Of a DNA stretch of 64,000 bases, positions 10,141 through 44,585 are shown piece after piece. A model generated the notes under the pieces. That model saw only the letters and a program-made list of their open reading frames with translations. It had not been told where the DNA came from and did not search any database. Numbering within the stretch: the stretch's first letter is position 1; each line of letters opens with the position of its first letter. The position numbers and the translations under genes are program-made. The DNA comes from an uncultured Planctomycetia bacterium (GTDB lineage: Bacteria; Omnitrophota; Gorgyraeia; Duberdicusellales; 4484-171): the NCBI GenBank assembly GCA_964483625.1, contig CAZABB010000006.1:2129-66128 (forward strand). Direction: 5' to 3'.

Positions 10141-10629
10141 TCACACCCACAGATTCTTATCCAGAGAACGGTACTGCACCGCCTCAGCCACATGGGCCGG
10201 GAGGATATCTTTACTTTGAGCCAGATCGGCAATGGTGCGGGAAATTTTGAGGATCTTATCGTAGGCCCGGGCGCTGAATCCGAATTCCCGCGCGGCAGCT
10301 TCAATCAATGTTTTTGCCTGAGAACTCAGGACGCAGTACTTCCTGATCTGCTTATGGTTCATCCGGGCGTTAAAGAACGTGCCGCCGTTATAAGACGCAA
10401 ACCTCTCCCGCTGGATCTTCCGGGCAGCTTCAACTCGTTTTTTTATTCGATAAGAGTTTTCACTCACCACTCCGTCAGCCATAACCGCACTCATCTTAAT
10501 ACTCTGCAGTTCGATGTGAATATCGATCCGGTCCAGGAGCGGACCGGATATTTTATTGCGATACCGCTGGATCTGAGAACCGGAACAGTGGCAGGGTTTG
10601 TGGTGGGAGTTGAAATACCCGCAGGGGCA
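10141..10629 (-). pseudogene. comM: comM/yifB Mg-chelatase-family ATPase, C-terminal fragment (island-interrupted)
   Basis: Minus-strand translation ..GCPCGYFNSHHKPCHCSGSQIQRYRNKISGPLLDRIDIHIEL...FSARAYDKILKISRTIADLAQSKDILPAHVAEAVQYR is the ComM C-terminal third. It lacks an N-terminus and is contiguous in sequence logic with the fragment at 44,566-45,624. Confidence 0.8.
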
Positions 10630-12253
10630 TCCCTTCAGCACACTTCGCAAACTCTTCGGGACTGTCAACGTAGATTGTCATGTCCATCTTGAGCTTCCTC
10701 CTGACTTTCTTGGCGAGGACTTCCTTTACGATTACGGCGAGCCTTGACTTCCTTGCTTCTTCTGAAAGGACTGGCCAGGTCTTTGCGAGGTTCTCAAGCT
10801 CTTCAAACGAGGCTTCGAGGGCGAGTATCCTGTTCTGCGATTCTTCTTTGACGGTCTTTACCTTTAGGAGGCTGTTCCTTACTTCTTCAAGCTGTCTGTT
10901 CACCTTTTCAAATCTCGGGGTGAATGTCTCGTCGTCTATTATCCTGCGTTCGAGCTTGCCGAGGAGTGTTTCTCTTATTTCATCAAGTTCCTTCTCATGC
11001 GCCTCGAGCTGGGCTTTTTCCTGTTTTTTGTTCTTGGTGTCGGGCTTTACCGCTTTCTTGAGTTCATTGATGAGCTTTGCCTTCTCTTTCAGGAATTGCT
11101 TGTTTTCTGAGAGCGCAAGGAGTGTCCCGATGACTATCTCTTCGAGTGGCTCTCCGTCTATGGTCTGTCCTTTGCAGGCTGAGGTTCCTTTCCTGCTTGT
11201 GGTGGCGCACCTGTAATACAGGTATTCCTTCTCCGTCCCGTCTGCATAGGTCTTTGTGTGGGTATAGCCGTACATCTTTCCCCCGCAGTGCCAGCATTTC
11301 AGTATTCCCGACAGGAGATAGGTCTTGTCCGATTTGGTGGGCTTTGATGTCTTCTGCATCAGCAGGTCCTGGACTTCATCGAATTTCTTTTTCGCCACTA
11401 TCGGCTTGTGGTCGCCTTTGACTATCTTCCATTTCTCCCTGTCCACGTGCCTGAGCTTTCCAGAGGAGATGTCAGTCTTTCTTTTGCCGTAGGTTATGTA
11501 TCCGAGATAGAAGGGGTTTGTCAGCATCCGTCTTACTGTCGTTGTTGTCCAGTCGCCCTTCCTTGTCTTGAGTCCCCGGAGATTGAAGCCGTTGACCACT
11601 TTGCGGAGGCTTTTCTCTTTGAGGTAGGAGTCATACATCTGCCTGATTATCTGCGCTTCCTCTTCAAGCAGGTAGAGCTTCTTGTTCTCGGGGGTTTCCC
11701 TGTCCGCTTTGTTCAGGGCTTTTGCTTCGCTTGCTCCTTTTGCCCTGAGGCTTTCGATGAGCTTTTCCCTTGTTATGTATCCAAAGGGGATTATCCCTCC
11801 GTTCCATTTGCCTTTTTCCGCCCTGTAGTGCATGTCAGTTGAGACTCTTTCGGAATCAATTTCTCTCTCAAGCTGTGCCAGTGCCCCGAGGAGGTTGAGC
11901 ATGAATCTTCCCATCGGGCCTTCGGTATTTATGTTTTCGTTGAGGGAGAGGAGCTTGATGTCGTGCTTCTCGAAGAACGATACAAGGAACAAAAGGTCTT
12001 GAAGCGACCTTGTGATCCTGTCAAGCCTTGTGAATACGACGATGTTGAACTTCTTGTCTTCTGCATCCTTCAGCAGAGCTTCCAAAGCCGGCCTGTTCTT
12101 GTCCTTTGCAGATATTCCCTCATCCCTGTAGAGCCTGAATACGGAGAATTCCCTTGCGTTACAGTATTGCTTGAGGCGTTCTTCCTGGGTCTTGAGGGAG
12201 TCACGGTCTATCTGCTGGGTGGTTGATACTCTTATGTAGAGTGCAGCTTTCAC
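10553..12253 (-). CDS. large serine recombinase
   Basis: N-terminal resolvase catalytic domain ALYIRVSTTQQ...S-nucleophile, a recombinase domain and a C-terminal zinc-ribbon/coiled-coil. GTG/ATG start at 12253. The 3' end reads across the attL junction into comM-derived DNA. Confidence 0.85.
   Translation of the reverse strand: MKAALYIRVSTTQQIDRDSLKTQEERLKQYCNAREFSVFRLYRDEGISAKDKNRPALEALLKDAEDKKFNIVVFTRLDRITRSLQDLLFLVSFFEKHDIKLLSLNENINTEGPMGRFMLNLLGALAQLEREIDSERVSTDMHYRAEKGKWNGGIIPFGYITREKLIESLRAKGASEAKALNKADRETPENKKLYLLEEEAQIIRQMYDSYLKEKSLRKVVNGFNLRGLKTRKGDWTTTTVRRMLTNPFYLGYITYGKRKTDISSGKLRHVDREKWKIVKGDHKPIVAKKKFDEVQDLLMQKTSKPTKSDKTYLLSGILKCWHCGGKMYGYTHTKTYADGTEKEYLYYRCATTSRKGTSACKGQTIDGEPLEEIVIGTLLALSENKQFLKEKAKLINELKKAVKPDTKNKKQEKAQLEAHEKELDEIRETLLGKLERRIIDDETFTPRFEKVNRQLEEVRNSLLKVKTVKEESQNRILALEASFEELENLAKTWPVLSEEARKSRLAVIVKEVLAKKVRRKLKMDMTIYVDSPEEFAKCAEGMPLRVFQLPPQTLPLFRFSDPAVSQ
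10609..10645. repeat. island left junction (attL-like): gaaataccc-GCAGGGGCA-tcccttcagc
   Basis: comM reading frame ends at the CPC codons. The plus-strand 9-mer GCAGGGGCA matches GCATGGACA at the right junction (GCAnGGnCA, 7/9). Confidence 0.5.
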
Positions 12254-12384
12254 TTATTGGTTTTCCTTTCTTCGAGGAGCTTTTGGAATACCTTGATATC
12301 GGCTTCAAGCAGGATTTCAAGAACTCTCTGAAGCCTGAACCGCTCCCCGCTACCTTCCTTTATTATCCTGCGTTTCTTCTTCAT
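12250..12384 (-). CDS. small basic protein (44 aa), possible recombination directionality factor
   Basis: MKKKRRIIKEGSGERFRLQRVLEILLEADIKVFQKLLEERKTNK. Its stop overlaps the recombinase start (GTGA). Absent from the ORF track (<60 aa). The RDF role is inference only. Confidence 0.25.
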   Translation of the reverse strand: MKKKRRIIKEGSGERFRLQRVLEILLEADIKVFQKLLEERKTNK

Positions 12385-12476
12385 GATTTGCTTTCCGTAA
12401 CATATTCTACTATGGAACACTATGAAGTCAAGAGGAATGTGCCTGCTGCTTATTTCAAAATTAAATGCAAAATCGG

Positions 12477-12505
12477 TTGCGTTACGGTTAGCGTTTGGAT
12501 ATAAT
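12477..12505 (+). promoter_or_regulatory. sigma70-like promoter (TTGCGT-17-TATAAT)
   Basis: -35 at 12477-12482, 17-nt spacer, -10 at 12500-12505, upstream of the RHH/methyltransferase operon. Confidence 0.4.
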
Positions 12506-12607
12506 AAAATCATATTTATACGATTAATATTATTCATATGATAAATAATATAAATAGGGCAAAAAACACAAAAAGTATAAATACCACTTTCTGCAGGAGT
12601 TAGATAA

Positions 12608-12766
12608 ATGCCAAAAAAAGGGAAATCAAAACAATCCATAGGGATAACTATAGATAAAGAAATCCTTAAGAAATTGGACAATTTCTGCAAGAAAAATTTT
12701 AATGCAAAACGGTCAGGCGTAATAGAGCAGGCCACAAAGAAATTCTTAGAGGAGAATTCAAAATGA
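12608..12766 (+). CDS. ribbon-helix-helix (CopG/Arc-like) DNA-binding protein
   Basis: 52 aa: MPKKGKSKQSIGITIDKEILKKLDNFCKKNFNAKRSGVIEQATKKFLEENSK, a beta-strand then two helices. GGAG RBS. Its stop overlaps the methyltransferase start (ATGA). Missing from the ORF track. Confidence 0.5.
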   Translation: MPKKGKSKQSIGITIDKEILKKLDNFCKKNFNAKRSGVIEQATKKFLEENSK

Positions 12767-14892
12767 GCAAATATGATTTTCTTGATGCACGCAAAGAACT
12801 CGAGCAGACGATAAGTGCTGATTTAAAACGGGCTCTTGAAAAGAGAGGGTTTAGCGTTAAACACAATGGCACTAAAGATTCCTCTGCACCGGGGAATAAA
12901 GCTGACATTGAGCTCTATAATTCGACTTACCATATCACTGTAGAGGTAACGAAGACAACAAAATCCAATGCAGACAGGGAATTTTTGGCAATAAAAGACC
13001 ACTTAGAGCAGATTAAAAATACATACACTTCAAAGAAATGTTTTACTATTTATGTATCTCCTGAGACACATTACCGCATGATGAATGCCATTCGAGATCA
13101 TGATATCTTAAATAGCAAGAAAAACGACCTTAAGATATTGCCTTTTTCTTTCGCTTCTTTTGAGCTCTTTATTACCAAGCTAATTCAATCTCACAAGGAA
13201 CAATACAATAAAACTCTGATTATAGGGTTATTTAATGAATATCTTAATTTTCTGGATGATGAGCGTGTCTTGAGGATATTATATGACAAACTATTTTCCG
13301 ACGACGAGCAACTCAAAAGAGAAATTCAAATTAAAGAGGAAAATAGGCATCAGCAGACCGTTGAGAATTTAGTAAAAGATTTACTCAATCTCGAAAATAA
13401 GTTGAGAGAAGAATTGGGAATTACCCATACTGATGCAATCAGAGATATTATATTTCTGGTCTTCATTAAACTTTATGAAGAAAAAAGAGAATTTGAAGGT
13501 AAAGAGAACAGATTTAAAAGGCACACCTTTCCTAAATTTCAAGAGTATATCAATGATGAGAAATTAGCAGGACATGAATTGTTTAAGTTGATAAAGGAAG
13601 ATAAAGAGCTTAAGTCTGCGAAGGTCTTTACTGATTCTGATTTTCTGTCCGATAAACTGGACGACAATTTCATCCTGAAATTCTATATTGAGCCGTTTGA
13701 GAAATATCACTTTTATACTACTAAAGTAGATGGCCTCGGCGCTGCATATGAGGTTTTGGGTATGCGGGCAGGTAAAGATGTTAAGGCAGGGCAGTTTTTT
13801 ACTCCTGAGAATGTCGTGAGATTTATGGTTCATATGGCAGAACTGGATTATGATGATGTAGTATTAGACCCCGCCTGCGGCACAGCAAGATTCCTTATAT
13901 ATTCTATGTATGACATGATTGAAAAAGTTCGAGGACGAAATCAGGATGATAAAGTCAAGAATATTAAGGTTAAACAATTGTATGGCTCAGATTATGACCC
14001 TAATGTGGCAAAGCTGGCAAAAATGAATATGTATATACACGGAGATGGGAAAACAAACATTATGGACCAAGACGGTCTTTTATTATTTCATTTTGATAAT
14101 CAAATTGATGCAATCCTTACAAATCCTCCTTTGGGTGACCAATCATATCAAAAGACAAGCTATGATGATATTTTTAAGAAGGAACGCATGGCTGTAATTC
14201 CAAAGAATAATGTATCCACAGATAATCTGAAGTCTTTGAGGGACAAGCTCAATGCCTTAAAAGAAAGTTTATTGAAGGCAAAAGAGACACAATCTCAGAA
14301 GAATGTCCAAAGGATAAGCAAGAACATTGAGGAATGTGAAAGGAAAATTGTTAATTTAGAAGAAGACATTGCCCGGGGGACTGTTGAACATAAGGTCTCT
14401 GGCACACAAATGAAAGGTGGCGCCTTATTCATAAACGCTGCGTATCATTATTTAAAGACTGTTAGAAATGAGGATGCTTTACCAGAGTGGCGTGGGGGGA
14501 AGCTGCTTCTTATTTTGGATGAGGGCATTTTGAATACAGAGGATTATTCTAATGTTAGAAATTTTGTAAAGGAGCATTTTTATATTAAGGCGGTGATTTC
14601 TCTTACGAGAGATACCTTCATCCCTATTTCTCATACAAGCACAAAGACCTCGATATTGTATTGTATAAAGAAAGAAGATTTAGATGCAGTCCAGCAAGAA
14701 CCTATCTTTTTTGCGCATGTGGATAAAGTCGGTTTGAATACAAAAGGCAAGGTGTGTGAGAATCATTTATTTAGTGGCAACAAGAAAAATATTCTGAAAA
14801 ATTATATGGAATTCAAGAAGAATGTGTTGGATTCATATGATGGTTTAGCCTTTAATAGAAAAAGATTTGTCGGGAAAAAGAAAAATGTTTGA
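12763..14892 (+). CDS. N6-adenine DNA methyltransferase with N-terminal nuclease-like domain (type IIB/BcgI-A-like or HsdM-like)
   Basis: Motif X/I QFFTPENVVRFMV...DPACGTARFL and motif IV NPPLG (gamma-class amino-MTase). The roughly 200-aa N-terminal domain has a D..E.TK arrangement (ADIELYNSTYHITVEVTK), possibly PD-(D/E)xK-like. Confidence 0.8.
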   Translation: MSKYDFLDARKELEQTISADLKRALEKRGFSVKHNGTKDSSAPGNKADIELYNSTYHITVEVTKTTKSNADREFLAIKDHLEQIKNTYTSKKCFTIYVSPETHYRMMNAIRDHDILNSKKNDLKILPFSFASFELFITKLIQSHKEQYNKTLIIGLFNEYLNFLDDERVLRILYDKLFSDDEQLKREIQIKEENRHQQTVENLVKDLLNLENKLREELGITHTDAIRDIIFLVFIKLYEEKREFEGKENRFKRHTFPKFQEYINDEKLAGHELFKLIKEDKELKSAKVFTDSDFLSDKLDDNFILKFYIEPFEKYHFYTTKVDGLGAAYEVLGMRAGKDVKAGQFFTPENVVRFMVHMAELDYDDVVLDPACGTARFLIYSMYDMIEKVRGRNQDDKVKNIKVKQLYGSDYDPNVAKLAKMNMYIHGDGKTNIMDQDGLLLFHFDNQIDAILTNPPLGDQSYQKTSYDDIFKKERMAVIPKNNVSTDNLKSLRDKLNALKESLLKAKETQSQKNVQRISKNIEECERKIVNLEEDIARGTVEHKVSGTQMKGGALFINAAYHYLKTVRNEDALPEWRGGKLLLILDEGILNTEDYSNVRNFVKEHFYIKAVISLTRDTFIPISHTSTKTSILYCIKKEDLDAVQQEPIFFAHVDKVGLNTKGKVCENHLFSGNKKNILKNYMEFKKNVLDSYDGLAFNRKRFVGKKKNV

Positions 14893-16321
14893 CACTTCTA
14901 TTTACTACAGATTTTCAGAAGAGATTGATGACAGGTTTGACGAAAATTATAATCATTTGCGTTATGATGAAATTAATCGGCTACTCAGTAAAAGCAGATT
15001 CGAGAATATCCTTCCTATAGGCGATAAGCAAGTTCTGAAGGAAATTACCAGTGGCAAAACGCCTCGAGGAATTAAGTATCAGGAAGAAGGAGTGCCATTT
15101 TTAGGAGCTTCAAATATCATCAACGGAGAGGTTGATATAGAAAGTTGCCCTAAGATTGAACAAGAAATGCATGAAGGAGTGCTTAAGTCTTCCAAGGTAA
15201 AAAAGGGAGATATTCTAATAACGATGGCGGGAACAATAGGTCGTTGTGCGATTTATTCTTATGAAGAAGAGGCAAATTGTAATCAAGCCGTAGCAATATT
15301 GCGATTGAATGAAGATATAGTAATCCCCCATTATGTCGTAGAATATCTTGATTCAGTTATTGGTGATCTGTTTTTTCAGAAATTCCAGCATATTTCGAGT
15401 CAGCCTAATATTAATCTTAATGAAATTAAAAGAATTAAGGTAATCCTTCCAGATAAGACGCAACAGAAGACCATACTGAATGAAATAAATAAAATTAGAG
15501 CAGAATTACATAATATAATAAAAATGCGTGAAGATAAGCTCATAGAGATTAAGGTTTCTATAATTGACGAGTTAGAATTTAAGTCTCAAATACCCAAAAC
15601 GTACTTTTTTCATAAAGGGAGAGAATCTACGAACTCCTGTTTTTCCTTTTTTGAAGATTTGGATAGGCTTCACTACTTGTTTAATCAACCCAAAGGTAAA
15701 TTATACGAAGAATTAATTAAAATATTTCATACTGTTGAACTTAATGATGCTTGCAGCGAACCCATTAAACGAGGAGAGCAGCCTGTATATATGGAAGAGG
15801 GGGAAGTGAAAGTCATAAAAACTATAGATTTAAAGAATTCTTATATAGATATGGATAATTGCTTAAGAGTATCACAGGAATTTTATGATGAGAAGGTTAC
15901 TGCTCAAATTTTTAAAAAAGATATTTTAATTGCTTCAACAGGCTATGGGTCTTTAGGCAAGGTAGATATATATGAGGATGATGAACCCGCTATGGTGGAT
16001 GGGCATATTTCTATTTTACGCCTTAACTCAGATTATGACCCCTATTTTATACTATACTTTCTTCGTTCTCCTTTGGGGCAGATACAGTTTGAAAAGTGGT
16101 TCTCTGGTTCTTCTGGGCAAATAGAAATTCAACCCGGAGACTTAGGCAAATTCTTGATTCCCTCTGCATCTGATAATGGAATTTCTTTTGTAAGGCAGTG
16201 CCAGATATCAAAGAAAATATCTGGTAAGTTAAAAGAAGCTAATTTGTTAAGAAGTAAAGCGGATTTAGTCAGAGATAAATTGTCTCAGAATTTTCAAGAA
16301 TTAATATTCCGGAACTTTTAA
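14867..16321 (+). CDS. hsdS: restriction-modification specificity subunit (HsdS-like, two TRDs)
   Basis: Two target-recognition domains separated by a conserved helical spacer (TQQKTILNEINKIRAELHNII), typical of HsdS. The likely start is ATG at 14885, overlapping the MTase stop. Confidence 0.8.
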   Translation: MSGKRKMFDTSIYYRFSEEIDDRFDENYNHLRYDEINRLLSKSRFENILPIGDKQVLKEITSGKTPRGIKYQEEGVPFLGASNIINGEVDIESCPKIEQEMHEGVLKSSKVKKGDILITMAGTIGRCAIYSYEEEANCNQAVAILRLNEDIVIPHYVVEYLDSVIGDLFFQKFQHISSQPNINLNEIKRIKVILPDKTQQKTILNEINKIRAELHNIIKMREDKLIEIKVSIIDELEFKSQIPKTYFFHKGRESTNSCFSFFEDLDRLHYLFNQPKGKLYEELIKIFHTVELNDACSEPIKRGEQPVYMEEGEVKVIKTIDLKNSYIDMDNCLRVSQEFYDEKVTAQIFKKDILIASTGYGSLGKVDIYEDDEPAMVDGHISILRLNSDYDPYFILYFLRSPLGQIQFEKWFSGSSGQIEIQPGDLGKFLIPSASDNGISFVRQCQISKKISGKLKEANLLRSKADLVRDKLSQNFQELIFRNF

Positions 16322-16348
16322 TCCCATTCAGAGGATATATCTTTATCT

Positions 16349-16831: not shown

Positions 16832-17019
16832 CTTTTTACGTTTATAAATGGAAACGCTGTTTTAAATTTATCACTCATTTTATACTTTTTAGGTAAGTAT
16901 TGATTGAGAATTGGTAACTCTCGTCCGATTTCGGATAAATACAGCATGTTTTTTACAGGTTTACTTAGTTAACTTTTTGAAGCATAAGCTTTAAGAATAA
17001 ACTTCCTTGTGTTTTCGAG

Positions 17020-29705: not shown

Positions 29706-29711
29706 TCAAAA

Positions 29712-30617: not shown

Positions 30618-30628
30618 GAGGAAAAAAT

Positions 30629-32769: not shown

Positions 32770-32836
32770 TTATAACTATATTAGTTGCACATTTAATTAT
32801 GATTAATTTTTCCGGTCAGAATCCGTGTTTTTACGG

Positions 32837-32861
32837 TTTTCTGGCTGGTTCTGCCAGAAAA
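32837..32861. other. candidate recombinase core site (9-7-9 inverted repeat TTTTCTGGC-tggttct-GCCAGAAAA)
   Basis: Perfect 9-bp inverted arms with a 7-bp spacer 68 nt after the Xer-like stop. Additional GCCAGAAAACCG / CGGTTTTCTGGC copies lie at 32832-32846 and 32913-32924. Confidence 0.4.
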
Positions 32862-32971
32862 GAATTTCTTTCACGACTGAAGTCTGGCCGTTTCTTTAAC
32901 TCGCTCTTAACAGCCAGAAAACCGTATTATTTGGCGGTCAGATTTATGTCCTTAATCCGGGAGGTGTCCTG

Positions 32972-33838
32972 ATGATAAAAAAATTATTCAACCGCATCAG
33001 GGATTCCTTTGGAAAAATTAATGAGGAGTCCTATGACGAAAATGCAGTCCTTGATGAATCCCCTCATGTCTCAGATGAGGGCGAAAAGAAGGTCTGCGTT
33101 CTTGAGTTCTACGCTTTCATGCGTAAGCTGTATGAGAAGATTCTTGGCAGGCTGGGGTTCTCGTATTTCATAACAGGGAGCGAAGAAGAATTTTTATCAT
33201 CCCTTGAATGCTGTTCTGTTGCCGTTGTTGATGACAACCAGCCTGACATCAGGGGCTTTCTTCTGGCCTCAAAACTGAAGGCTGAACGCCCTGAGCTTCC
33301 TGTAATTGTATGCACAGCTAACGCTTCGCTTGAAGCTTATGAGGAGTTCAAGGTCTCTAAGGCTGATGCTCTGCTGTTCAAGCCTGTTTCTGAAAGCGAG
33401 CTTGCTGGCTGCATTAATAGGGTTCTTGTCAAGTCCTCTGCCGAGCCTGTTGTTGAAGAAAAAGTAATTCCGAAAAAGCGTGGCAGGAAACCTTTTACTT
33501 TTCTTGATATCGCTGAAAAGCATGTCTGGGAGTTTTCCCAGAGCGGGCTTTCAAAGGCCGAGTTTTCAAGGAAGAACAAGCTGAGCCTTTCATCTCTGAA
33601 AAACGAGTTCAGGATTATTGCACTGCCTGAAAGCGTGAAGAAACTTGTAGGCGAAAACATCGACTGCTTCAAGAAGTCCTTTTTTGAGCACATCACCAAG
33701 CTCAAGGATGAACAGAGCATCCTTGATTTATGCTCTGAAATTATCGAACGTGGTAGCAAGGGGTCTTATTATGATCTCTCTGCCCTGAAGCAGAGAGTCA
33801 ATGAGTATCTTTCATTGGAGAAAAAAGATGAGGTTTGA
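32972..33838 (+). CDS. receiver (REC)-like domain protein
   Basis: VAVVDDNQPDIRGF...LPVIVCTAN...DALLFKPV with a C-terminal helical domain. Confidence 0.5.
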   Translation: MIKKLFNRIRDSFGKINEESYDENAVLDESPHVSDEGEKKVCVLEFYAFMRKLYEKILGRLGFSYFITGSEEEFLSSLECCSVAVVDDNQPDIRGFLLASKLKAERPELPVIVCTANASLEAYEEFKVSKADALLFKPVSESELAGCINRVLVKSSAEPVVEEKVIPKKRGRKPFTFLDIAEKHVWEFSQSGLSKAEFSRKNKLSLSSLKNEFRIIALPESVKKLVGENIDCFKKSFFEHITKLKDEQSILDLCSEIIERGSKGSYYDLSALKQRVNEYLSLEKKDEV

Positions 33839-34769
33839 AGAGCGAATAAAAGTCAGCAATGATTTTGTCCTTGAGGTTGCGAGGAAGGCTTTTCCTTCCT
33901 GTAGCCTGAAGAGCGTCTGCCCTTCGTCTCTTGGCAAAGTCTCGAGCGTTTTCAGGGTTGATATTTCTTCCCCTGATAAGAACATGTGCCTGAGGGTCTC
34001 ACGCAACGGAGAGGTCGGGAAGGAATCTGTCGCTTACGGCCTGCTTGAAGGGATTGTTCCTGTCCCTCCGATAATAATTTCAGGCGAGAAGTTTCTCCTG
34101 TCGGGCTGGCTTCCCGGCATGACTCTGGAAGACGCTTTAAAGACTGTTGATTCCGATGACAGGAGGCTTCTTGCTTTCTCTGCCGGCGAAGTCCTTGCCC
34201 GCATCCATTCGGTCGCTCTTGATTCTTTCGGTTTTATCTTTGACGGTGATGTTGCGTTTCCTTCGGCGAGGTCTTTTATTCTGACGAAGCTTGATTCGCT
34301 TCTTTCTTCTCCTCTTGTCAGGGAAGCTTTCGGGCTAATTACTCTTGAGGAGATTAAGAAATTCTGTTCCCAGTATATTGTTATGTTTGAAGGGAAACCT
34401 TGTCTGCTTGTCGGGGACTACAAGGCAAACAACATCAACGTAATCAATGATCCTTCATGGAGGATTAACGGCGTCTATGATTTCGGGGATGCCTTTGCAG
34501 GACTCAACGAGTGGGATTTCTCCAAGTTCTTCAGGCATGTTGCGGATGTTTACCCTGACATGAAGCGGCCTTTCCTTAGCGGGTATAAGAAATGCGGGAC
34601 TATAAAAAACGGCTTTGAGAAAAGGGTGAGAATCTTCGATGTTTTCCTGATACTCCTCACTGTCGAGAAGATGATGAGGGCTCCCGTCTCTGACGAGGAA
34701 AAGATTGAGGAGCTTCGCAAATACGTTGATGTCCTGAAGGAGAACATCTTTATCGTAAATTCACTATAA
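33828..34769 (+). CDS. phosphotransferase (APH/choline-kinase family) protein kinase-like
   Basis: Brenner-like motif LVGDYKANNINV and DFGDAFAG (DxD). The start overlaps the REC gene stop. Confidence 0.65.
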   Translation: MRFEERIKVSNDFVLEVARKAFPSCSLKSVCPSSLGKVSSVFRVDISSPDKNMCLRVSRNGEVGKESVAYGLLEGIVPVPPIIISGEKFLLSGWLPGMTLEDALKTVDSDDRRLLAFSAGEVLARIHSVALDSFGFIFDGDVAFPSARSFILTKLDSLLSSPLVREAFGLITLEEIKKFCSQYIVMFEGKPCLLVGDYKANNINVINDPSWRINGVYDFGDAFAGLNEWDFSKFFRHVADVYPDMKRPFLSGYKKCGTIKNGFEKRVRIFDVFLILLTVEKMMRAPVSDEEKIEELRKYVDVLKENIFIVNSL

Positions 34770-34974
34770 GAGGTGATTAATTTGAGAAAGAAAAAGCCTG
34801 ACATGAAGTTCAGAGGTAAGTGCGGAAAGTATGATTTTGAGCTTTCCGTCACCTTTGCGCCGTTTCCTTCCTCAAAGGAAAGGGACAGGGCTTATCGTGT
34901 GTGGGCTGAGACATTCGCTGAAAGCTGTAAGAAAGGGAGAAAGGTTTAAGTAATCTTCTTGAATATAAATCTCT

Positions 34975-35751: not shown

Positions 35752-38091
35752 ATGGATAAAGCTGTTCTTGTATCAAAAATTAAGGAGTTGAGCAATCTTG
35801 CTAATAAGCTTCATGGCTTTGAAGATGATGAGGAAAGTTTCCTTGTTGCGATTAAGGGGCTTGACAGGAAGTATCTTGAGGGCGAGCTTGAGAAATTTCG
35901 TGAAGGAAGCATTAGCTGGAATGGCGTTTTGAAGCCTGTTAATTTCCTTAAATTCTTGGTAATAGATAAGGTTCTTGATGACAAGGATGTTTCTCTTGAG
36001 ATTATTGACGAGTTCAAGGATAGGATTCTTAAGCTGGATGTTGATTATTTCAAGGATTATCCTGATTTCAAGGAGGCAATGCTCAAGCTTGAGAAGGGTA
36101 AAAACTTTTTTTGGCAGTGGAACAATATTTTCAAGATTCTTTTTTATGTCTATTATGACCAGCATAAGGACAGCGTCAATTCTTCTCTGACCGAGATTGC
36201 TGACCATTTCAAGACTGTTTTGAATATGAAGGATTCCAAGACAACGATTAACGGGTTTGGGTGGAATAATAATTATGGCTCGAGCGATTGCTGGATTGCT
36301 CTTTATCCTCCTGATAGGGACAGCCATCAGAAGGCTTATCAAATCTTTTTGAGGGTGAATCCTGTAAACGAGCTTGTTTATGGAATGACTAACGGCGCAA
36401 AGATTGCGGAGAACAAGAAGCTTGAGAAGCAGGATGGTTCTAACGTTGATGTAGACAAGCTCGAGAAATTTCTCTTTGAGAAAGCTAAGCCTGAGTATGA
36501 AAAGCTTAACGCCTCTGTTAAACCTGAGCCTGACGAAGAAGAGGTTGACGAAGAATTAAGGGTTGTCGATGAGAAATGCCCCAAGAATGTCATTCTTTAC
36601 GGCCCTCCTGGGACTGGAAAGACTTATATGGCTTACGAGGAGGCTGTTCGCATTGTTGATCCTTCCTTTTCGTGGAAGGACAGGAAGGCTCTCGTTGCTA
36701 AATTTCGTGAGTTTCAGGATAGCGGTTATATCACTTTTGTTACTTTCCATCAGTCTTTCAGCTACGAGGAATTCATTGAGGGTTTCAGGTATGACAAGGA
36801 AGAAAAAATGCCTATGGTTGAGTCTGGCGTGTTCAAGACGCTTGTCGAGAGCGCAAGGTCTGACTATGTAAGTCCTAAGAAGAAGATTGATTTGAACCTT
36901 GCTAAGAGGAATGTATTCAAAATGTCGCTCGGCAACACTCTCAAGGAAGATGAGGATATTTATGATTTCTGTATGCAAGAAGACATCATAGCCATTGGTT
37001 GGGGGCAAGATGTTAACTATACGGGAGCCGATACTAAGGAAAAAGTCGCCAAGAAGTTCAAAGAGCATGAAGGAAGCGATAAAGATTCTGTCTTTAATGT
37101 AACAGCGATTCACTTCTTCAAGAATATCATGAAGAAAGATGACCTTGTATTTGTCTCTAAAGGAAACCGTTCCTTGCGTGCTATTGGTCGTGTTGTGGGG
37201 GAATATTATTATGATGAAAATGTACCTATAAATTATCGCCATTTCAGAAAGGTCGAGTGGCTTCTTACGGACAGCAATATTCCCGTAGAGAAAGTTATGA
37301 AGAAGAATTTCAGCCAGCAGACTATTTATGAGATAAGCAAGAGCTGGCTGCTTGAACAGAACCTTCAGGAGCTTCTTGCTAAACCAGCAGACAATAAGAA
37401 AGAGGTCAGGAATTATGTGCTGATTATCGACGAGATTAACAGGGGGAATATCTCTAAGATTTTCGGGGAGTTAATCACTCTTATTGAGGATGATAAAAGG
37501 CTTGGCATGGAGAACGAGATGGTCGTCAAGCTTCCATACAGCAAGGAGATCGATTTCGGGATTCCTCCCAATATCTATGTTATCGGCACTATGAATACTG
37601 CTGATAGGAGTATAGCTTTGATGGATGTCGCTCTTAGACGAAGGTTTAGTTTTAAGAGGATTGCTCCAGAATCCAAGATTATCTCTGACTTGTTGTCCGA
37701 GAAGGAGGTCGATGGGGATTTTATTGAGATTTTGCAGAAGTCCTTTATTGCCTTGAACAAAAGGATTAAGGTGTTGCTTGATGAAGACCATGTTATAGGG
37801 CATAGTTATTTTCTGAAGATTGGGCCTGAAGATTTCGAGTATGATCTTCATGCTGTCTGGTATGACAAGATTATTCCTCTGCTTCAGGAATATTTCTATA
37901 ATGATTGGGATAAGTTGAGGCTTGTTCTCGGCGAGCATAATTCTCAGAAACGTAGCGGTTTCATTAAGGTTTTAGAGGCTGAATACAAGGGCATTTTCGG
38001 CTCTGAGTTTGATGAGGAGTATCCTTGCGAAATTGTCCGCTATGAGCCTGATTTGTTCTCTCAGGTATTGAAGAACACATTTATCGGATAA
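35752..38091 (+). CDS. mcrB: McrB-family AAA+ GTPase with unknown N-terminal domain and internal PUA/EVE-like insertion
   Basis: Motifs GPPGTGKT, FHQSFSYEEFIEG, LIIDEINRGNISKIFGE, GTMNTADRSIALMDVALRRRF are near-identical to E. coli McrB motifs, but about 175 extra aa lie between FHQS.. and IIDEINR. GGGAGGGGG RBS. Confidence 0.8.
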   Translation: MDKAVLVSKIKELSNLANKLHGFEDDEESFLVAIKGLDRKYLEGELEKFREGSISWNGVLKPVNFLKFLVIDKVLDDKDVSLEIIDEFKDRILKLDVDYFKDYPDFKEAMLKLEKGKNFFWQWNNIFKILFYVYYDQHKDSVNSSLTEIADHFKTVLNMKDSKTTINGFGWNNNYGSSDCWIALYPPDRDSHQKAYQIFLRVNPVNELVYGMTNGAKIAENKKLEKQDGSNVDVDKLEKFLFEKAKPEYEKLNASVKPEPDEEEVDEELRVVDEKCPKNVILYGPPGTGKTYMAYEEAVRIVDPSFSWKDRKALVAKFREFQDSGYITFVTFHQSFSYEEFIEGFRYDKEEKMPMVESGVFKTLVESARSDYVSPKKKIDLNLAKRNVFKMSLGNTLKEDEDIYDFCMQEDIIAIGWGQDVNYTGADTKEKVAKKFKEHEGSDKDSVFNVTAIHFFKNIMKKDDLVFVSKGNRSLRAIGRVVGEYYYDENVPINYRHFRKVEWLLTDSNIPVEKVMKKNFSQQTIYEISKSWLLEQNLQELLAKPADNKKEVRNYVLIIDEINRGNISKIFGELITLIEDDKRLGMENEMVVKLPYSKEIDFGIPPNIYVIGTMNTADRSIALMDVALRRRFSFKRIAPESKIISDLLSEKEVDGDFIEILQKSFIALNKRIKVLLDEDHVIGHSYFLKIGPEDFEYDLHAVWYDKIIPLLQEYFYNDWDKLRLVLGEHNSQKRSGFIKVLEAEYKGIFGSEFDEEYPCEIVRYEPDLFSQVLKNTFIG

Positions 38092-38095
38092 GAAA

Positions 38096-39415
38096 ATGGT
38101 CTTAAAAAATAAAGTTATATCGCTTTCAGAATTTGAAGAAATTCCCCTCTCTGAGCTTGAGGTAAAGATTGGCAAACGAGGCATCAGGCTTTTGAAGAGG
38201 ATTAATTCCCGGAGCGGTTGCGAGATTTTTCGCCTCTTGCATGATAGGGTTAAGGCTTCTCATTATGTGGGTTTTGTCCGTGTTCTTGGTTACACGATTC
38301 AGGTCGTGCCTAAAGTTTTTGGGGAGGACAAGCCGGATAATCTCCATTTCCTTCTTTGCCTTTTGAGATATACAAGGAAGATTCAGGTCAAGGAGCACGA
38401 AATCGGTAATCTGGGGAAGGTCAAGGATGACTTTTTCGAGATATTGATTTTCTTGTTTGCTAAGGCTCTTCGGGAGCTTTTGCGGAGGGATTTTAAAAAG
38501 ACGTATGTTGTCCGTGAAGAAAATAGTCCGTTCTTGAAGGGAAAATTCTTAATCAGTGAGAATGTCAGGCGGAATATTTTTGATGATTCGAGGTATTGTT
38601 GCAGGTTTGATGAATTCACTGAGAATAATTTGATGAATCAGCTCTTTAAGTATGTTGTTTCGATGCTCATAAGGATATCGAGGTCTGTGTCCAATAAGAA
38701 GCTCCTTGAGGATATCCTCATATATTTATGTGATGTTGAATTGGTGAATATTACCTGTGCGGATATTGATAGGATTCACTTTACCCGTCTCAACAATTCA
38801 TATGAGCCGTTGGTAAACCTGTGCAGATTATTCCTTGAAAACATGAGCATCCGTTTCTCAGCTTCCAAGCTCGAGACTTTCGTGTTCATGTTTGACATGA
38901 ACAGGCTGTTTGAGGAATTTGTCTTTGAGTTCGTTAGAAGAAACAGGAGTAAATTGTTTATTGGCGGGGAAAACGAAGTTGTTTTTGTTAAAGACCAGAT
39001 TTATATTGGCAAGCTGTTCGACGAATTCAAGATGCGAGGGGATATTCTCATTAAGGACTCTTCAGGCAGACTTATTTTGTTGGATACGAAGTATAAAACT
39101 CTTGATTCATACGCCCTTCATGGGCGTTTGTCTCAAGCAGACTTTTATCAGATGTTTACTTATTCGACATCGCAAGAACAAAAGTATGAGGATGTAATCT
39201 TGTTGTATCCTTCCAATGAAGAGGTGGCCGAGCCTTTCACTGATAAAGAGCTTAGGCATGTTATAGCTGGAAAAGAGACTGTTAAGATTCATGTCAGAAC
39301 AATCAGTCTTACTAAAATATTCAATGCGGAAAAGAAGTCAATTAATGAGACGGCGATGATTGAAGAGTTAAATAAAGCATTTATGTTGCCTTCTGCTAAT
39401 TTGGTATTGAGGTGA
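38096..39415 (+). CDS. mcrC: McrC-like restriction endonuclease subunit
   Basis: Starts 5 nt after the mcrB-like stop. C-terminal PD-(D/E)xK core LILLDTKYK, McrC-like length. Confidence 0.75.
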   Translation: MVLKNKVISLSEFEEIPLSELEVKIGKRGIRLLKRINSRSGCEIFRLLHDRVKASHYVGFVRVLGYTIQVVPKVFGEDKPDNLHFLLCLLRYTRKIQVKEHEIGNLGKVKDDFFEILIFLFAKALRELLRRDFKKTYVVREENSPFLKGKFLISENVRRNIFDDSRYCCRFDEFTENNLMNQLFKYVVSMLIRISRSVSNKKLLEDILIYLCDVELVNITCADIDRIHFTRLNNSYEPLVNLCRLFLENMSIRFSASKLETFVFMFDMNRLFEEFVFEFVRRNRSKLFIGGENEVVFVKDQIYIGKLFDEFKMRGDILIKDSSGRLILLDTKYKTLDSYALHGRLSQADFYQMFTYSTSQEQKYEDVILLYPSNEEVAEPFTDKELRHVIAGKETVKIHVRTISLTKIFNAEKKSINETAMIEELNKAFMLPSANLVLR

Positions 39416-39447
39416 CAAGGTAGTGACGTTTTGCCGGAGGAATAATA

Positions 39448-40305
39448 ATGAAAAAACCTATGATTTCCAGATATATTTCAGATGAACGAATTTTTGAGGA
39501 TATTATCTGCAAAGATTTTGAGTTCCTTGTGGATAAGATAAAGCAGTCTGGCTTTGAGTATTCGCTCGAAATCAGGGAAGATTACTTTAATCTGTATTAT
39601 CAGGGTAACAGTATAGGCAAGATTACCTTTCGAGCTCGCAACAGGGATTATAAAGTTGGAATCAATAAGAAGTTTGTTGATAAGAAGATGAATGACCGTT
39701 TTGATGGTCAGAAATCAGGTGACTATGTTGATTTCTTCATTTCTCCAAAGAAATTGCAGTCTTTTTTCTCTGAAGCTAATTTAAGGTTTCTCAGCCAGAA
39801 GGTCAGGGACGTGAATTATCAGGAGGAGATTGCTTTTGAGCAGATGATTATGACTGATAACGTCGGCAGACCTGATTTTGTCGTAATTGACAGGCAGGTG
39901 GTTGACCACTCGAGCAGGGAGAAGATAGATTTGCTTGGCCTCAAAAGGGTTTCTGGGGATAATTTTCAGTTTTGCGTGCTTGAAGTAAAGCTGGGAAAGA
40001 ATGAGGAATTGAAAGGCGCAGTGAGCGGTCAGCTAAAGCGATATGTCAGGAGGGTTACAGACCATTTTGAAGAATATAAGCAGTGTTATGAAAAGAATTT
40101 TGAGCAGAAAAAGATATTGGGTTTGATTAATAGCATAGAAAAGGTTTGTATTGTTAAGCCTGTCCTCGGCATTGTTGTTGTAGGTGGCTATGGCGGTTTA
40201 GCAGAACCGAACATAAAAGAACTTAGAGGCAAGGATAAAGATATCAGGATTCTTCACATAAAGAACGAGATAGACTTTAACAAAGTAGAGCCAAAATGCA
40301 ATTAA
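39448..40305 (+). CDS. NucS/DUF91-like PD-(D/E)xK nuclease
   Basis: GRPDFVVID...FCVLEVKLGKN nuclease core in the C-terminal half. Confidence 0.55.
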   Translation: MKKPMISRYISDERIFEDIICKDFEFLVDKIKQSGFEYSLEIREDYFNLYYQGNSIGKITFRARNRDYKVGINKKFVDKKMNDRFDGQKSGDYVDFFISPKKLQSFFSEANLRFLSQKVRDVNYQEEIAFEQMIMTDNVGRPDFVVIDRQVVDHSSREKIDLLGLKRVSGDNFQFCVLEVKLGKNEELKGAVSGQLKRYVRRVTDHFEEYKQCYEKNFEQKKILGLINSIEKVCIVKPVLGIVVVGGYGGLAEPNIKELRGKDKDIRILHIKNEIDFNKVEPKCN

Positions 40306-41561
40306 CTATTTATCGTGGCACTAAGGAAATCGGCGGTTCTTGTGTTGAGCTTCAGACCAGGAATGCAAGGCTTCTTGTCGATTTCGGTCTTCCTTTGAGT
40401 GATGAGACTTTTTCTAAGGACGTTAAGAAGAAGTCCATGAAGGATTTCATAAGGGATGGATTGCTTCCTGACGTTGAGGGATTATATGATAAGCCGGGCT
40501 TTGACGCTGTTCTGCTGAGTCATGCCCATCAGGATCATTACGGCCTTCTTTCCTTTGTGCATCCCGATATTCCAATCTGCATGAGCCGGGGCACGAAGGA
40601 GCTTGTCGAGCTCAGCTATCTTTTTGGCCAGACAAACTGCAACCTTAAGAATGTCAGGGTCGTGGAGGCTTGGAAGACTTTTGAAATAAAGGATGTCAGG
40701 GTGACTCCTTACCTTGTTGACCATTCAGGCTTTGACGCAATGGCTTTTCTCATAGAAGCCGACGGGAAACGAATCTTCTATACTGGCGATTTCAGGGCGC
40801 ATGGAAGAAAATCGGTGCTTTTCCGCTCCATGATAGAAAATCCTCCGAAGGATATTGATTACCTGATTATGGAAGGCACAATGCTTTCAAGGGAAAATGA
40901 GGAACGCAAGACCGAGGATGATGTCGAGAAAGAGCTGGTGTCTCTTTTGAAATCTCAAGGCAATCTCACTTTTTTGTCCTGCTCGTCCCAGAATATCGAC
41001 AGGCTTGTTTCTGCATACAGGGCGTGCATGCAGACGGACACTTTGTTTGTAGTTGACCCCTATACTGCTTATGTTCTTTATGAGCTGAAAGACATCTCGA
41101 AGGGACTCCCTCAATATGATTGGGGCAGGAACATGAGGATATTTTTCATCCCGAACAAATACACGGACAAAGTTCTTAATGGGAAAAAGATGTATCAGTT
41201 TAAGAGGGCGAAAATCACAAAAGAAGAAGTGTTCTCTCTTGAGAAAAAAATGCTTGTTAAGGATTCTTACACCATGAGGAATATCTTCAGGAACAAGCGG
41301 TTGCTCAAAGGCACTTCAGTCATATATTCGCAGTGGGAAGGATATCTTGATGACATAAAGGAATTCTGGGATAAGAATGGGGTTAAGATTATACAGGTGC
41401 ATGTCTCAGGCCACGCTTACGTTGCGGACTTGATTAAGTTCGCACAAGCGGTAAAACCTAAGAACATTATTCCTATACACACTGAGAGGGCAGAAAGATT
41501 TAAGGAATTATTCGATGCAAATATAATCTCTGTCAATGATAGGCAGAGAATAGATTTATAA
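40296..41561 (+). CDS. metallo-beta-lactamase fold beta-CASP nuclease
   Basis: MBL motif SHAHQDHYG, beta-CASP motifs (YTGDF; ...HVSGHA). Overlaps the previous gene by 10 nt. Confidence 0.7.
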   Translation: MQLTIYRGTKEIGGSCVELQTRNARLLVDFGLPLSDETFSKDVKKKSMKDFIRDGLLPDVEGLYDKPGFDAVLLSHAHQDHYGLLSFVHPDIPICMSRGTKELVELSYLFGQTNCNLKNVRVVEAWKTFEIKDVRVTPYLVDHSGFDAMAFLIEADGKRIFYTGDFRAHGRKSVLFRSMIENPPKDIDYLIMEGTMLSRENEERKTEDDVEKELVSLLKSQGNLTFLSCSSQNIDRLVSAYRACMQTDTLFVVDPYTAYVLYELKDISKGLPQYDWGRNMRIFFIPNKYTDKVLNGKKMYQFKRAKITKEEVFSLEKKMLVKDSYTMRNIFRNKRLLKGTSVIYSQWEGYLDDIKEFWDKNGVKIIQVHVSGHAYVADLIKFAQAVKPKNIIPIHTERAERFKELFDANIISVNDRQRIDL

Positions 41562-41777
41562 GGAATTCTGGTGAACTATAAAGAAATACCTATGGATGTC
41601 CGTATTGACCGTATCGGCTCTCTTCTCGCTAAGGCCGTTCATCTGGCTGTCTTGAAGGAGAGGTCTGATTTCTTTGTTGATTCTTCTGGCCGGGACATAT
41701 TCGGGGAGTCTTCGGATTGTTGATTTTCCTCTCTGTGGAAAAGATTTATATAGCTGGATTCTAAGGAAGGTTCGTTT

Positions 41778-42503
41778 ATGAAAAGAAAAAAAGGTTCTTC
41801 TGTCCGCTGGTTCGGCGACTGGGCGAATGAATATGATTCTACCTTAGGCAGTATGGGGTTTCATTGCGGTCTGCTGGATTTGGTCGTTTCGGTCTCGGGC
41901 GTCAGGGATTCTGACAGGGTTCTGGACATCGGGTGTGGGACTGGCCTTCTGAGCCTCAGGTTTTTGAGGGCTTCGGAGTGTTCGGTTGTGGGTGTCGATA
42001 ATTCCCGAGAGATGATTGGGATATTCCGTGAGAAGATTGAGAAGCTTGGCATCGGAGAAAAAATGAGACTCAGCCTGATGGATGCCTCTTCTCTCAGGTT
42101 CGGCAAGGAAAGTTTTGATGTTGTGGCTTCTACTGTTACGCTTCATCACCTAAAAGACAAGCTGAAATCCCTGAAAACTATCCATAAGATTCTCAGACCC
42201 AGCGGTAAACTGGTTATCGGAGATATCGACATGGACACTACCGGAAAGCTTACTGATGAAAGAAGGATGAGAAGGATTCTCGATGTCCTTGCCGATGAGT
42301 GGATTTCTGCCCTGAAAGAGTCGGGAATTGACAGCTTTGAGAGGATGTTTGACAACGGGAAGAAGCATATCCTTAACGACGGGGAATATTGCATCGACTT
42401 TAAGCAGTGGTCGAGATTGTGCAAGAAAGCAGGTTTTAAATCAGTATCAGTAAAATCTGTTCCAGGACACAGCAGGTTTAAGGTTCTGCTCGCAAGAAAG
42501 TAG
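41778..42503 (+). CDS. class I SAM-dependent methyltransferase
   Basis: Motif I VLDIGCGTGLLS, Methyltransf_11/25-like. Confidence 0.65.
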   Translation: MKRKKGSSVRWFGDWANEYDSTLGSMGFHCGLLDLVVSVSGVRDSDRVLDIGCGTGLLSLRFLRASECSVVGVDNSREMIGIFREKIEKLGIGEKMRLSLMDASSLRFGKESFDVVASTVTLHHLKDKLKSLKTIHKILRPSGKLVIGDIDMDTTGKLTDERRMRRILDVLADEWISALKESGIDSFERMFDNGKKHILNDGEYCIDFKQWSRLCKKAGFKSVSVKSVPGHSRFKVLLARK

Positions 42504-42513
42504 AGCTTGCCTT

Positions 42514-42675: not shown

Positions 42676-42730
42676 TTAAAAAGGAAAAAGATTATTAATC
42701 TTGAGAACATGTACTGGAGTAAGGTCGATA

Positions 42731-43621: not shown

Positions 43622-43623
43622 AT

Positions 43624-43854
43624 TTATTCCTTTACGCAGATTATGGTCTTTCCGTCGAATAATGAATTGCAGGATAGACAGAACCAGACACCTTTTAATG
43701 GTATGATTTTCCCTTCCGAAGAATCCTCGCCGAGCAATAAAGAGCAGTTCTCAAACCTTTCATAAGACTTGTCCGCTTCTCGCCAGCCAGCAACCTCAGA
43801 AGTGTTATAACTGCCACAGCCGGGGCATTTTTTATCAGGTGATTTGTCAGGCAC
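43624..43854 (-). CDS. zinc-ribbon small protein
   Basis: CPGCGS...CLSCNS motifs. Confidence 0.35.
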   Translation of the reverse strand: MPDKSPDKKCPGCGSYNTSEVAGWREADKSYERFENCSLLLGEDSSEGKIIPLKGVWFCLSCNSLFDGKTIICVKE

Positions 43855-43993
43855 TAAATATCTCCTTTAAAGAAAATATAGCATATATTTCTGATAGGGG
43901 CATATTAAAGAAAGCTGTATTGATGGGGGTGAGGGAGTTAATGGCTGTTGTTAAGAGGATTTGAATTTTTTTCTGAATGGGTTGTGTTCGAAT

Positions 43994-44569
43994 TTATGCA
44001 CTTTGAATAGGTGGCATTCTTTGCAGAGGGTCATCGTATTTTTTTCCCAGTCTTTCCACCATCCCCTTTCTCATCTCATGCCTTCCATTCTCCCAGTCCA
44101 GCAGTGTAGAAGGGTCTATCCCTAACTCCTCTGCCATCTCCCTGTGGGTCTTCAGCAGGCTCAGGCGTAGTGCTCTCAGAACAATTCCTTTATTAGCTTC
44201 TCCATTCATTAGTCTTTGTTTGATCTCTTCGTGGTTGAAGAGAAGGGACTTTTCTATGCTGTATCTTTTTGACAGGGTTTCTTTGAGGACTTCCTGCGGT
44301 ATCTGTATCTTTTGTAGGATTAGTTTCAGGCTTCTTATCTCTGGTGTCCGTTTGTCCTGTTCCCATGCGAGGAGTATGTCCTGACTGCATCCGATTTGTC
44401 CCGCCATCTGTCCGGCGGTCATTTCCCTGTCTATCCTTTCCTTTCTCAGATACTGCCCGAAAGTCTTTGGTTTTGTGGTGTAATAGCCTCTCTGTTCGAG
44501 CAGGTCTAATTCAAGCTGTATGGTGATGGTAAGTGTTTCCCGTCGGTCGGTTTGCTTTGTGTTACGCAT
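43994..44569 (-). CDS. XRE-family transcriptional regulator (two HTH domains)
   Basis: Two HTH_3-like repeats ([40 protein letters not shown] and [28 protein letters not shown]). The annotated ATG lies in the attR core (cCATGc). Confidence 0.6.
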
Positions 44570-44585
44570 GGACAGGGGTTCATCG
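44553..44585. repeat. island right junction (attR-like): gtgttac-GCATGGACA-ggggttcat
   Basis: The comM N-fragment frame (AAMNPCPC) switches to island sequence after the CPC codons. Repeat partner of the 10,621-10,629 site. Confidence 0.5.

Follow-up and report, generated by a model that had tools for sequence, protein, structure and literature searches.

The window analysed here, a 64,000-nucleotide stretch of contig CAZABB010000006.1 (assembly GCA_964483625.1), contains a comM gene of the Mg-chelatase family that is interrupted by a 33,945-bp island of lower GC content, with the gene for a large serine recombinase (LSR) at the left end of the island and an open reading frame (ORF) encoding two helix-turn-helix (HTH) domains close to its right end (Table 1). 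The host is probably a member of the Omnitrophota. The comparisons described below suggest that the attachment site of the element (attP) lies inside the recombinase gene itself, such that integration would split not only comM but also a gene encoding an LSR-HTH fusion.

Table 1 Features of the interrupted comM locus and of the island within it (positions are those of the window)
Feature	Position	Strand	Remarks
comM 3′ fragment	10141..10629	-	Host codons GYFNSHH.. from 10620 to stop at 10141; 10620-10629 is the core copy TGCCCCTGCG
LSR, integrated truncated form, 566 aa	10553..12253	-	Resolvase, Recombinase and Zn_ribbon_recom domains
Restriction-modification (R-M) cargo	12608..16321	+	Ribbon-helix-helix (RHH) controller 12608-12766; AlwI-like nuclease + N6-methyltransferase fusion 12763-14892; specificity subunit 14867-16321; GC content 34-35%
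Tyrosine recombinase, 337 aa	19133..20146	-	First of two in the island
HerA/FtsK-superfamily ATPase, 497 aa	25374..26867	-	Related LSRs in L134 and L136 have a homologue upstream
Backbone module	29712..34949	+	AAA ATPase 301 aa, YdjM-like 428 aa, XerC/D-like tyrosine recombinase 285 aa, 68-aa ORF, response regulator 288 aa, APH-family kinase 322 aa, 58-aa ORF; by Pfam
Defence cargo	35752..42503	+	McrB-like AAA_5 GTPase/ATPase 779 aa, McrC 439 aa, 285-aa ORF without assignment, nuclease of the metallo-β-lactamase (MBL)/RMMBL fold 421 aa, S-adenosylmethionine (SAM) methyltransferase 241 aa
HTH ORF, 191 aa, two XRE-type HTH domains	43994..44569	-	Start 0-5 nt inside junction, in frame with LSR across rejoined attP
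Junction copy of 10-bp core, TGTCCATGCG	44565..44574	-	Exchange most likely in last four bases TGCG (44568-44565)
comM 5′ fragment	44566..45624	-	353 host codons; ORF extends to 44506; promoter-like site 45677-45648

The 5′ part of comM runs on the minus strand from 45624 to 44566 (353 codons, last residues ..AAMNPCPC), and its 3′ part runs on the same strand from 10620 to 10141 (159 codons, first residues GYFNSHHKPCHC..). Both ORFs reach into the island: the first (44506..45624) continues beyond its comM codons through 19 codons of foreign sequence down to 44506, and the second (10141..10668), which holds the comM remainder, reads GYFNSHHKPCHCSGSQIQRYR... As the first-pass annotation of this DNA had proposed, the halves are contiguous once joined. 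The in-silico join of 45624 to 44566 with 10620 to 10141 yields a 512-aa ComM that contains the Walker A motif GPPGVGKT and the full-length domain set of the ComM/YifB family, namely ChlI (1-121/121), the AAA+ domain Mg_chelatase (1-204/207, E 3e-91) and Mg_chelatase_C (2-94/94). The split point falls within the Mg_chelatase domain, between NPCPC and the following G codon. Comparison with intact homologues, a check that the annotation had recommended, gave an end-to-end alignment of residues 1-512 with ComM from 80 genomes, with the best match (63% identity) in a Candidatus Omnitrophota metagenome-assembled genome (MAG). Empty sites were also found in related genomes. Omnitrophica UBA6253 (L005) and an unclassified bacterial MAG (L004) carry genes of both window flanks with an uninterrupted comM between them.

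The order and strand of the genes flanking comM (8494-10000 and 45865-48450) are conserved between the window and these two genomes. The strand of comM relative to the flank genes is opposite in the window, and comM has additional neighbours there (a response regulator, a 115-aa ORF and uvrD). Judging by gene order, the surroundings of comM seem to have undergone a local inversion or rearrangement.

The composition of the island differs from that of its surroundings. Its guanine-plus-cytosine (GC) content is 42.5% compared to 48.0% and 49.3% in the flanks, and the GC skew changes sign from -0.10 to +0.10 between flanks and island, as seen when skew was computed across the boundaries according to the earlier recommendation. 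The GC content had been put at about 10% lower than in the flanks; it is lower, but by ~6 percentage points on average, and only the R-M block at 12608-16321 falls to 34-35%, the lowest value in the window. The boundaries proposed at first, 10,621-44,574, proved to enclose exactly one copy of a 10-bp core. The island has the features of an integrative element: an LSR gene at its terminus, a short att core at both ends, and a target that is uninterrupted in other genomes. Because the joined ORF is complete, syntenic relatives possess an intact comM, at least 30 loci with related LSRs show the same arrangement, and one relative occurs in both states, the ~34 kb between the comM halves are best explained as an insertion by the LSR, which probably inactivated comM. 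The view of the first-pass annotation that the intervening DNA is an insertion is thus supported by the joined ORF, the synteny and the related LSR loci.

That the split is instead an assembly chimera, or an insertion of the Tn7-like type known from AbaR islands, is hardly credible. It is true that comM is the AbaR hotspot in Acinetobacter, but the junction is codon-exact and recurs in at least 30 independent assemblies with related LSRs, and synteny is conserved in both flanks. Furthermore, no TnsA, TnsB, TnsC or TniQ-type genes were found among the scanned island ORFs; Pfam, PHROGs and NCBIfam scans together covered 38 of the ~44 island ORFs of at least 45 aa (six of 47-84 aa were left out). 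AbaR and other Tn7-like comM islands share with the island the target gene, a defence or resistance cargo and a likely gain from reduced transformation-mediated curing, and the Acinetobacter work discusses the benefit to elements of disabling comM (PMC11472951). They differ in moving by Tn7-like transposition with TnsABC/TniQ, whereas serine recombination is the likely process here.

The 566-aa recombinase had been recognised as an LSR that sits at the left end and runs into the junction, and both its domains and the reading of the junction agree with this. It comprises a Resolvase domain with the nucleophile serine (E 9e-40), a Recombinase domain (E 1e-25) and a zinc ribbon with embedded coiled coil (Zn_ribbon_recom, E 1e-13); R8 and S10 of the catalytic region are invariant in alignments. 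The protein matches the structures of the SprA and A118 integrases, with residues 191-518 aligning with SprA 183-514. However, only ~541-543 of its residues derive from the island, and its last ~25 codons and stop are comM DNA read in another frame. The core domains of the LSR are complete in this truncated form.

What the first-pass annotation had overlooked is that the recombinase ORF itself appears to be interrupted by attP, the HTH ORF near the opposite island boundary being its other half. In a join of the two island termini that mimics an excised circle, no stop codon interrupts the LSR frame, which reads on into the ORF 43994..44569 on the minus strand for a total of 734 aa; the attP join of this element (10,621.. 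to ..44,564) should accordingly read in frame as GGGATGCCCCTGCGTAACAC. The attP position falls in a linker between the LSR core (~541 aa, comprising the catalytic, recombinase and zinc-ribbon/coiled-coil parts) and the tandem XRE-type HTH module. The AlphaFold model of the HTH ORF has a predicted local distance difference test (pLDDT) score of 85.6 overall and >90 over residues 31-180. In the light of its homologues, the 191-aa HTH ORF appears to be the detached C-terminal module of the recombinase gene. Natural, uninterrupted LSR-HTH fusions were identified by Pfam in P0005 (702 aa) and P0011 (718 aa), both on contigs without comM. The window ORF aligns from its first residue with residues 539-702 of P0005 (E 7e-29) and with the tail of P0011 (E 3e-15). 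Searching with a small HTH-module profile yielded further fusions (P0037, P0092, P0102, P0110, L114, L128, L129, L132, L137 and L166).

The public (NCBI) gene call of the HTH protein (P0121) starts at Met50 (window 44420-44422). Translation from there would leave the first HTH domain of the AlphaFold model without its helix 1, and conserved coding begins 49 codons further upstream, at the junction. In a comparison of the window with three relatives, the ratio of nonsynonymous to synonymous changes (pN/pS) was 0.13-0.18 for codons 2-49 counted from the junction and 0.34-0.40 for the rest of the ORF. The lower ratio indicates that the linker stretch is translated, either as part of a fusion or from the NTG codon at the junction, which is ATG, TTG or GTG across four loci. 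It also shows purifying selection on the linker codons that is stronger than on the remainder of the HTH ORF.

To compare fused and integrated states across the family, 80 metagenomic loci with related LSRs were scored for two features, a comM fragment next to the LSR and an HTH fused to it. At ~30 loci, the LSR abuts a comM fragment broken at residues ~352-362, and none of these has a fused HTH. Conversely, none of the 7 loci with an HTH-fused LSR has comM nearby, such that fused and comM-adjacent status are fully exclusive among the sampled loci. The two forms interleave phylogenetically: the fused L082 is 74% identical to three integrated type-B loci, and the fused L114 is 80% identical to the integrated L118. 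The fusion itself is kept across LSRs that are only 32-50% identical and in both attP orientations.

One relative was found in both states. The 90%-identity cluster of P0011 includes a 718-aa and a 557-aa version, the latter in an Omnitrophica MAG (L250) where it and a truncated comM converge; host genes, uvrD among them, follow this comM. The integrated L250 and L082, the fused attP form, share 99.2% identity upstream of the att core, immediately after which they are unrelated. L085, an independent contig of the same element, ends exactly at the core dinucleotide where the two diverge, as expected at a point where the assembly graph branches. These comparisons show two states of the gene, with the catalytic LSR core intact in both.

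If integration splits the gene, stand-alone HTH ORFs are expected at the other junction, and these were found. Homologues of the window HTH ORF (71-73% identical) occur in three host contexts (L244, L245 and L246), each directly behind a truncated comM of 373-375 aa on the same strand, with the junction ..TGYCCNTGCG followed by TMACACAAAGCAAAC. In the majority of the family the insertion is the other way round, and the LSR and the 5′ part of comM converge. For this orientation the predicted HTH ORF, divergent beside the comM 3′ part, was found in L249 with the HTH part of P0011 as query; in P0126, the N-terminus is antisense comM. The two orientations match an inversion of attP within the gene, which reads GGGATGCCCCTGCGTAACACAAAG on the sense strand in the window and GGGATGCCCGCGCGATACAGAAAG on the antisense strand in L082. 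A single attP, inverted within its gene, would thereby yield both insertion orientations at the same target codons.

Imperfect 10-bp copies of the Cys-Pro-Cys codons are present at both junctions, TGTCCATGCG at 44574-44565 and TGCCCCTGCG at 10629-10620. Based on comparative breakpoints in the subfamily of the window, the exchange most likely took place within the final TGCG (44568-44565). In the reconstructed attP (10620-10665 plus 44520-44564), the strongest dyad axis lies on the first TG of the core, with arms TTTGCGAAGTGTG and CACAAAGCAAA matching at 15/24 positions versus 12 at the 95th percentile of shuffled sequences. For the subfamily of the window, dyad symmetry, relatives and contig ends give conflicting crossovers, whereas the breakpoint and the dyad axis coincide in opposite-orientation relatives. 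The choice of register affects neither the island length nor the in-frame fusion. Crossovers at the CCCCTG or ATG repeats were rejected as the joins would give NPCGY or AMPLRV, not the conserved NPCPCGY. An exact scan of IMG/VR for the attP pattern returned no match.

These data can be accommodated in the following mechanism. The LSR would move the 33,945-bp island into the conserved NPCPCG codons of comM, thereby disrupting comM. In the excised circle, the gene would encode the 734-aa LSR-HTH fusion. Integration would split this gene, leaving a truncated LSR with a meaningless host-encoded tail at one end and placing the HTH module 34 kb away at the opposite end, where it would follow the comM 5′ fragment immediately and on the same strand. 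The repressor-like HTH module would then be tethered to the integrase in the episome and be free or silent in the integrated state, an integration-dependent switch that would alter expression or directionality of the recombinase. The account as a whole, that is, an LSR island in comM with attP inside an LSR-HTH gene, an integration-dependent split of that gene, and a defence cargo (see below), is in our judgement likely to be correct. We infer that the two states of the gene differ biochemically or functionally, and an integration-dependent regulatory switch appears to be the most likely form of this difference. That the location of attP is an evolved state switch, with the episomal and the integrated enzyme differing in directionality or self-regulation and no conventional separate recombination directionality factor (RDF), is an explanation we prefer only tentatively, with less than even confidence.

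Several observations weigh against such a switch or leave parts of the account less secure. A sibling island in another assembly (L251; GCA_964590595.1, CAZPXQ010000013.1, 1380-2240), which is 95-96% identical to the window, retains only the ~16 last LSR codons and carries a stand-alone HTH gene (205 aa) that has an ATG and an AGGT ribosome-binding site of its own, indicating that the HTH module can work unfused. In the window, no evident ribosome-binding site was found at the junction start codon, so that the HTH ORF may not be made at all when integrated. As the two orientations place the HTH ORF differently with respect to comM transcription, read-through from the comM promoter cannot apply to the family in general. 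A fold search with the HTH model against the PDB returned no match at E <= 0.001 and no RDF or known directionality factor; taken singly, the HTH domains are similar to repressors of phages and islands (P22 c2, P2 C, Stl, C-proteins), but none of the overall matches was significant. In addition, the dyad axis of attP is 6 nt off the comparative TGCG breakpoint, a conflict of register, and while empty sites were seen in other species and attP forms in relatives, neither was seen for this exact element.

In L251, a near-perfect palindrome, CGCACGG-ATGC-CCGTGCG, occupies the attP position. The upstream neighbours are an HTH_3 gene in the opposite orientation and an AAA_14/DUF4143 gene; comM is not among them.

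A simpler explanation would be that this is an ordinary comM-targeting LSR island whose attP happens to lie in a tolerant linker. The truncated LSR would then be fully functional and the HTH protein independent, the two being fused by an accident of gene order, and the split would have no consequence. We consider this possible but doubtful. It is compatible with the completeness of the LSR core domains in the truncated form, with the stand-alone HTH gene of L251 and its own start signals, and with the frequent targeting of the comM family by LSRs. At comM-adjacent loci, moreover, the ORF continues for 1-92 codons past the aligned LSR core, and since these host-encoded tails vary in both length and sequence, they probably carry no function. 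Yet a neutral arrangement does not readily account for a fusion that persists in both attP orientations among LSRs of such low identity, for linker codons that are under stronger purifying selection up to the junction than the rest of the ORF, or for the complete exclusivity of fused and comM-adjacent forms in the sampled loci.

The HTH module could also be a built-in RDF that, when tethered or untethered, sets the choice between attP x attB and attL x attR recombination, such that no separate RDF would be needed. Artificial integrase-RDF fusions do switch directionality according to Olorunniji et al. 2017 (PMC5737554), a structure of an SprA-SprB fusion is available in the PDB (9dxd), and no other RDF candidate was recognised in the island. 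These engineered proteins resemble the predicted fusion in carrying an accessory protein covalently on the LSR C-terminus, but they are artificial and contain bona fide RDFs, while the protein considered here is a natural fusion to a tandem HTH of Cro/C1 type in which RDF similarity was not detected. The HTH fold is that of a generic Cro/C1-type DNA-binding domain, without a match to solved RDFs. By published precedent, furthermore, a fused RDF favours excision, yet the fusion here represents the excised state, when integration is needed. We therefore regard a built-in RDF as improbable.

No convincing operator-like repeats were found in the vicinity of the LSR promoter or the HTH end, and promoter and terminator scans performed no better than shuffles. 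Of the predicted sites, two promoter-like ones are suggestive, solely by their position upstream of comM and of the LSR.

The preferred reading, a recombinase gene that changes its product upon integration, has a parallel in the integration-dependent immunity of mycobacteriophages (Broussard et al. 2013), in which tyrosine integrases act on an attP inside the repressor gene and integration removes a short C-terminal degradation tag (PMC8092301). Both systems have attP inside a regulatory coding sequence, here that of the LSR-HTH gene, with products that differ by state and a stop or tail supplied by host DNA. They differ in that attP lies there in a separate repressor gene and here in the serine recombinase gene, from which a 190-aa tandem-HTH module would be detached. 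None of the C-termini ..IQSA, ..LLND, ..IGMD and ..HTTQ has the ssrA-like -AA terminus. As the enzyme is a serine recombinase, rather than a tyrosine integrase combined with a degradation tag, the relation appears to be one of functional analogy, not of membership. The self-splitting gene may represent a simple way for a serine-integrase element to sense its own integration, in parallel to integration-dependent immunity with tyrosine integrases.

Other integrase genes are also interrupted by their own attP. Examples are the tyrosine integrase genes of Myxococcus phage Mx8, where intP is converted to intX, and of the fusellovirus SSV1 (int). Integration of SSV1 splits the catalytic protein, and that of Mx8 swaps a short C-terminus. 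In all these cases attP lies in the integrase ORF, and integration alters or splits it. In contrast to both, the catalytic LSR here would stay whole, with only an accessory DNA-binding module removed.

The first-pass annotation regarded the case as unusual, a view that does not hold for the target, since LSR targeting of the comM family is published and common. Durrant et al. 2022 report that 12.4% of predicted site-specific LSRs target the Mg-chelatase/ComM family (PMC10083194), and Mageeney et al. 2020 list yifB among the genes split by integrative elements (PMC7192596). The elements of these surveys share with the present island the LSR at the island terminus, the site-specific insertion into the comM/yifB coding sequence, the inactivation of the competence gene and the use of one target by many divergent LSR clusters. 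The searched passages of the two surveys make no mention of an attP in a recombinase ORF or of an HTH module detached on integration. LSR islands in comM are accordingly a known class, to which the island adds a new host phylum and new cargo. The new part is the self-split LSR-HTH gene, whose anatomy is well supported across the family and of which no description was found in the searched literature. Literature searches for a serine integrase with attP in its own gene found none, which is not proof of absence.

These findings call for caution in the mining of LSRs, given that the ORF annotated in integrated copies of the LSR-HTH family is not the protein that would have performed the integration. 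It is missing a DNA-binding module of ~190 residues and ends in a random host-encoded tail, which could change the activity of candidates. If the state switch is real, LSRs mined from integrated copies for genome engineering would be truncated chimeras and not the native integrating enzyme.

The closest relative of the LSR is 85% identical and was found in a MAG labelled Deltaproteobacteria (L083; GCA_019308645.1, JAFDHR010000016.1, 1-8868), with BREX-like cargo comprising a PglX-type methyltransferase, a BrxC-like protein and a PLD-helicase. Assuming that the binning is right, near-identical integration modules would occur in MAGs of different phyla.

The cargo had been described as R-M, McrBC-like, nuclease and transfer-remnant genes. 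Of these, the R-M and McrBC genes and the MBL-fold nuclease were recovered; the supposed transfer remnant is a single HerA/FtsK-like ATPase whose CedD and TraC scores are far under the curated cut-offs. The AAA_5 NTPase (E 6e-15) is followed by McrC with full coverage of the McrBC component (E 4e-68, 1-318/318), the gene order of McrBC systems. In the R-M block, a single 709-aa protein unites an AlwI-like nuclease with an N6-methyltransferase, while the specificity subunit, with two target recognition domains, and a small RHH protein are encoded separately; by this arrangement the block appears BcgI/type-IIG-like rather than classical type I. Segment 29696-34949, with all backbone genes, has 95% nucleotide identity to L251 (6383-11636). 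The genes from the XerC-like recombinase to the 58-aa ORF (31912-34949) share 65-86% amino acid identity with L245 (11142-13994), a locus that ends before AAA/YdjM. In the same relatives the cassette at 35752..42503 is replaced, by an ApeA-HEPN protein in L251 and by OLD-like and Metallophos proteins in L245. By gene content, the cargo thus appears to be anti-phage defence (R-M, McrBC and nuclease) on a conserved backbone, with cassettes swapped between relatives.

Given this gene content, we also considered whether the island is a degraded prophage or an integrative and conjugative element (ICE), and find this quite unlikely. The HerA/FtsK-like ATPase with its weak terminase, TraC and CedD similarity, a DUF2958 protein and two tyrosine recombinases would fit such an origin, as would the presence of distant LSR-HTH relatives in phage-like genomes (L166 and L137). 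However, no match to capsid, portal, tail, lysis, relaxase or type IV secretion system (T4SS) genes was obtained among the 38 scanned ORFs. The only terminase-like match was a weak P-loop match in the HerA-like ATPase. Of the relaxase, coupling protein and T4SS that mark an ICE or an integrative and mobilizable element, none was identified, with TraC at 25 bits where the cut-off is 567 (oriT was not part of the search). No LSR relative above 41% identity, the value of the best one, was found among the viral contigs of IMG/VR, and the prophage reading was therefore dropped. As the scans recovered neither phage-structural nor conjugation genes and IMG/VR holds essentially no members of the LSR family, the element is best described as a putative non-autonomous integrative defence island.

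Among the unassigned ORFs submitted from the 16.3-31.9 kb region, PHROGs, PADLOC and NCBIfam found nothing (at most four libraries for each ORF, and not all ORFs in all libraries). The HerA/FtsK-like ATPase may act in DNA translocation or defence. The distant LSR relatives in L166 (384-12064) and L137 (2804-15027) are 31-34% identical and carry a single C-terminal HTH; their phage-like genomes encode a primase/polymerase, a Dda-like helicase, a Sak4-like annealing protein, an exonuclease and a CI/LexA-like repressor. Besides the DUF2958 protein, the island encodes a PadR-family regulator, and it harbours, inside an LSR element, a second, Xer-like recombinase together with a kinase/response-regulator pair.

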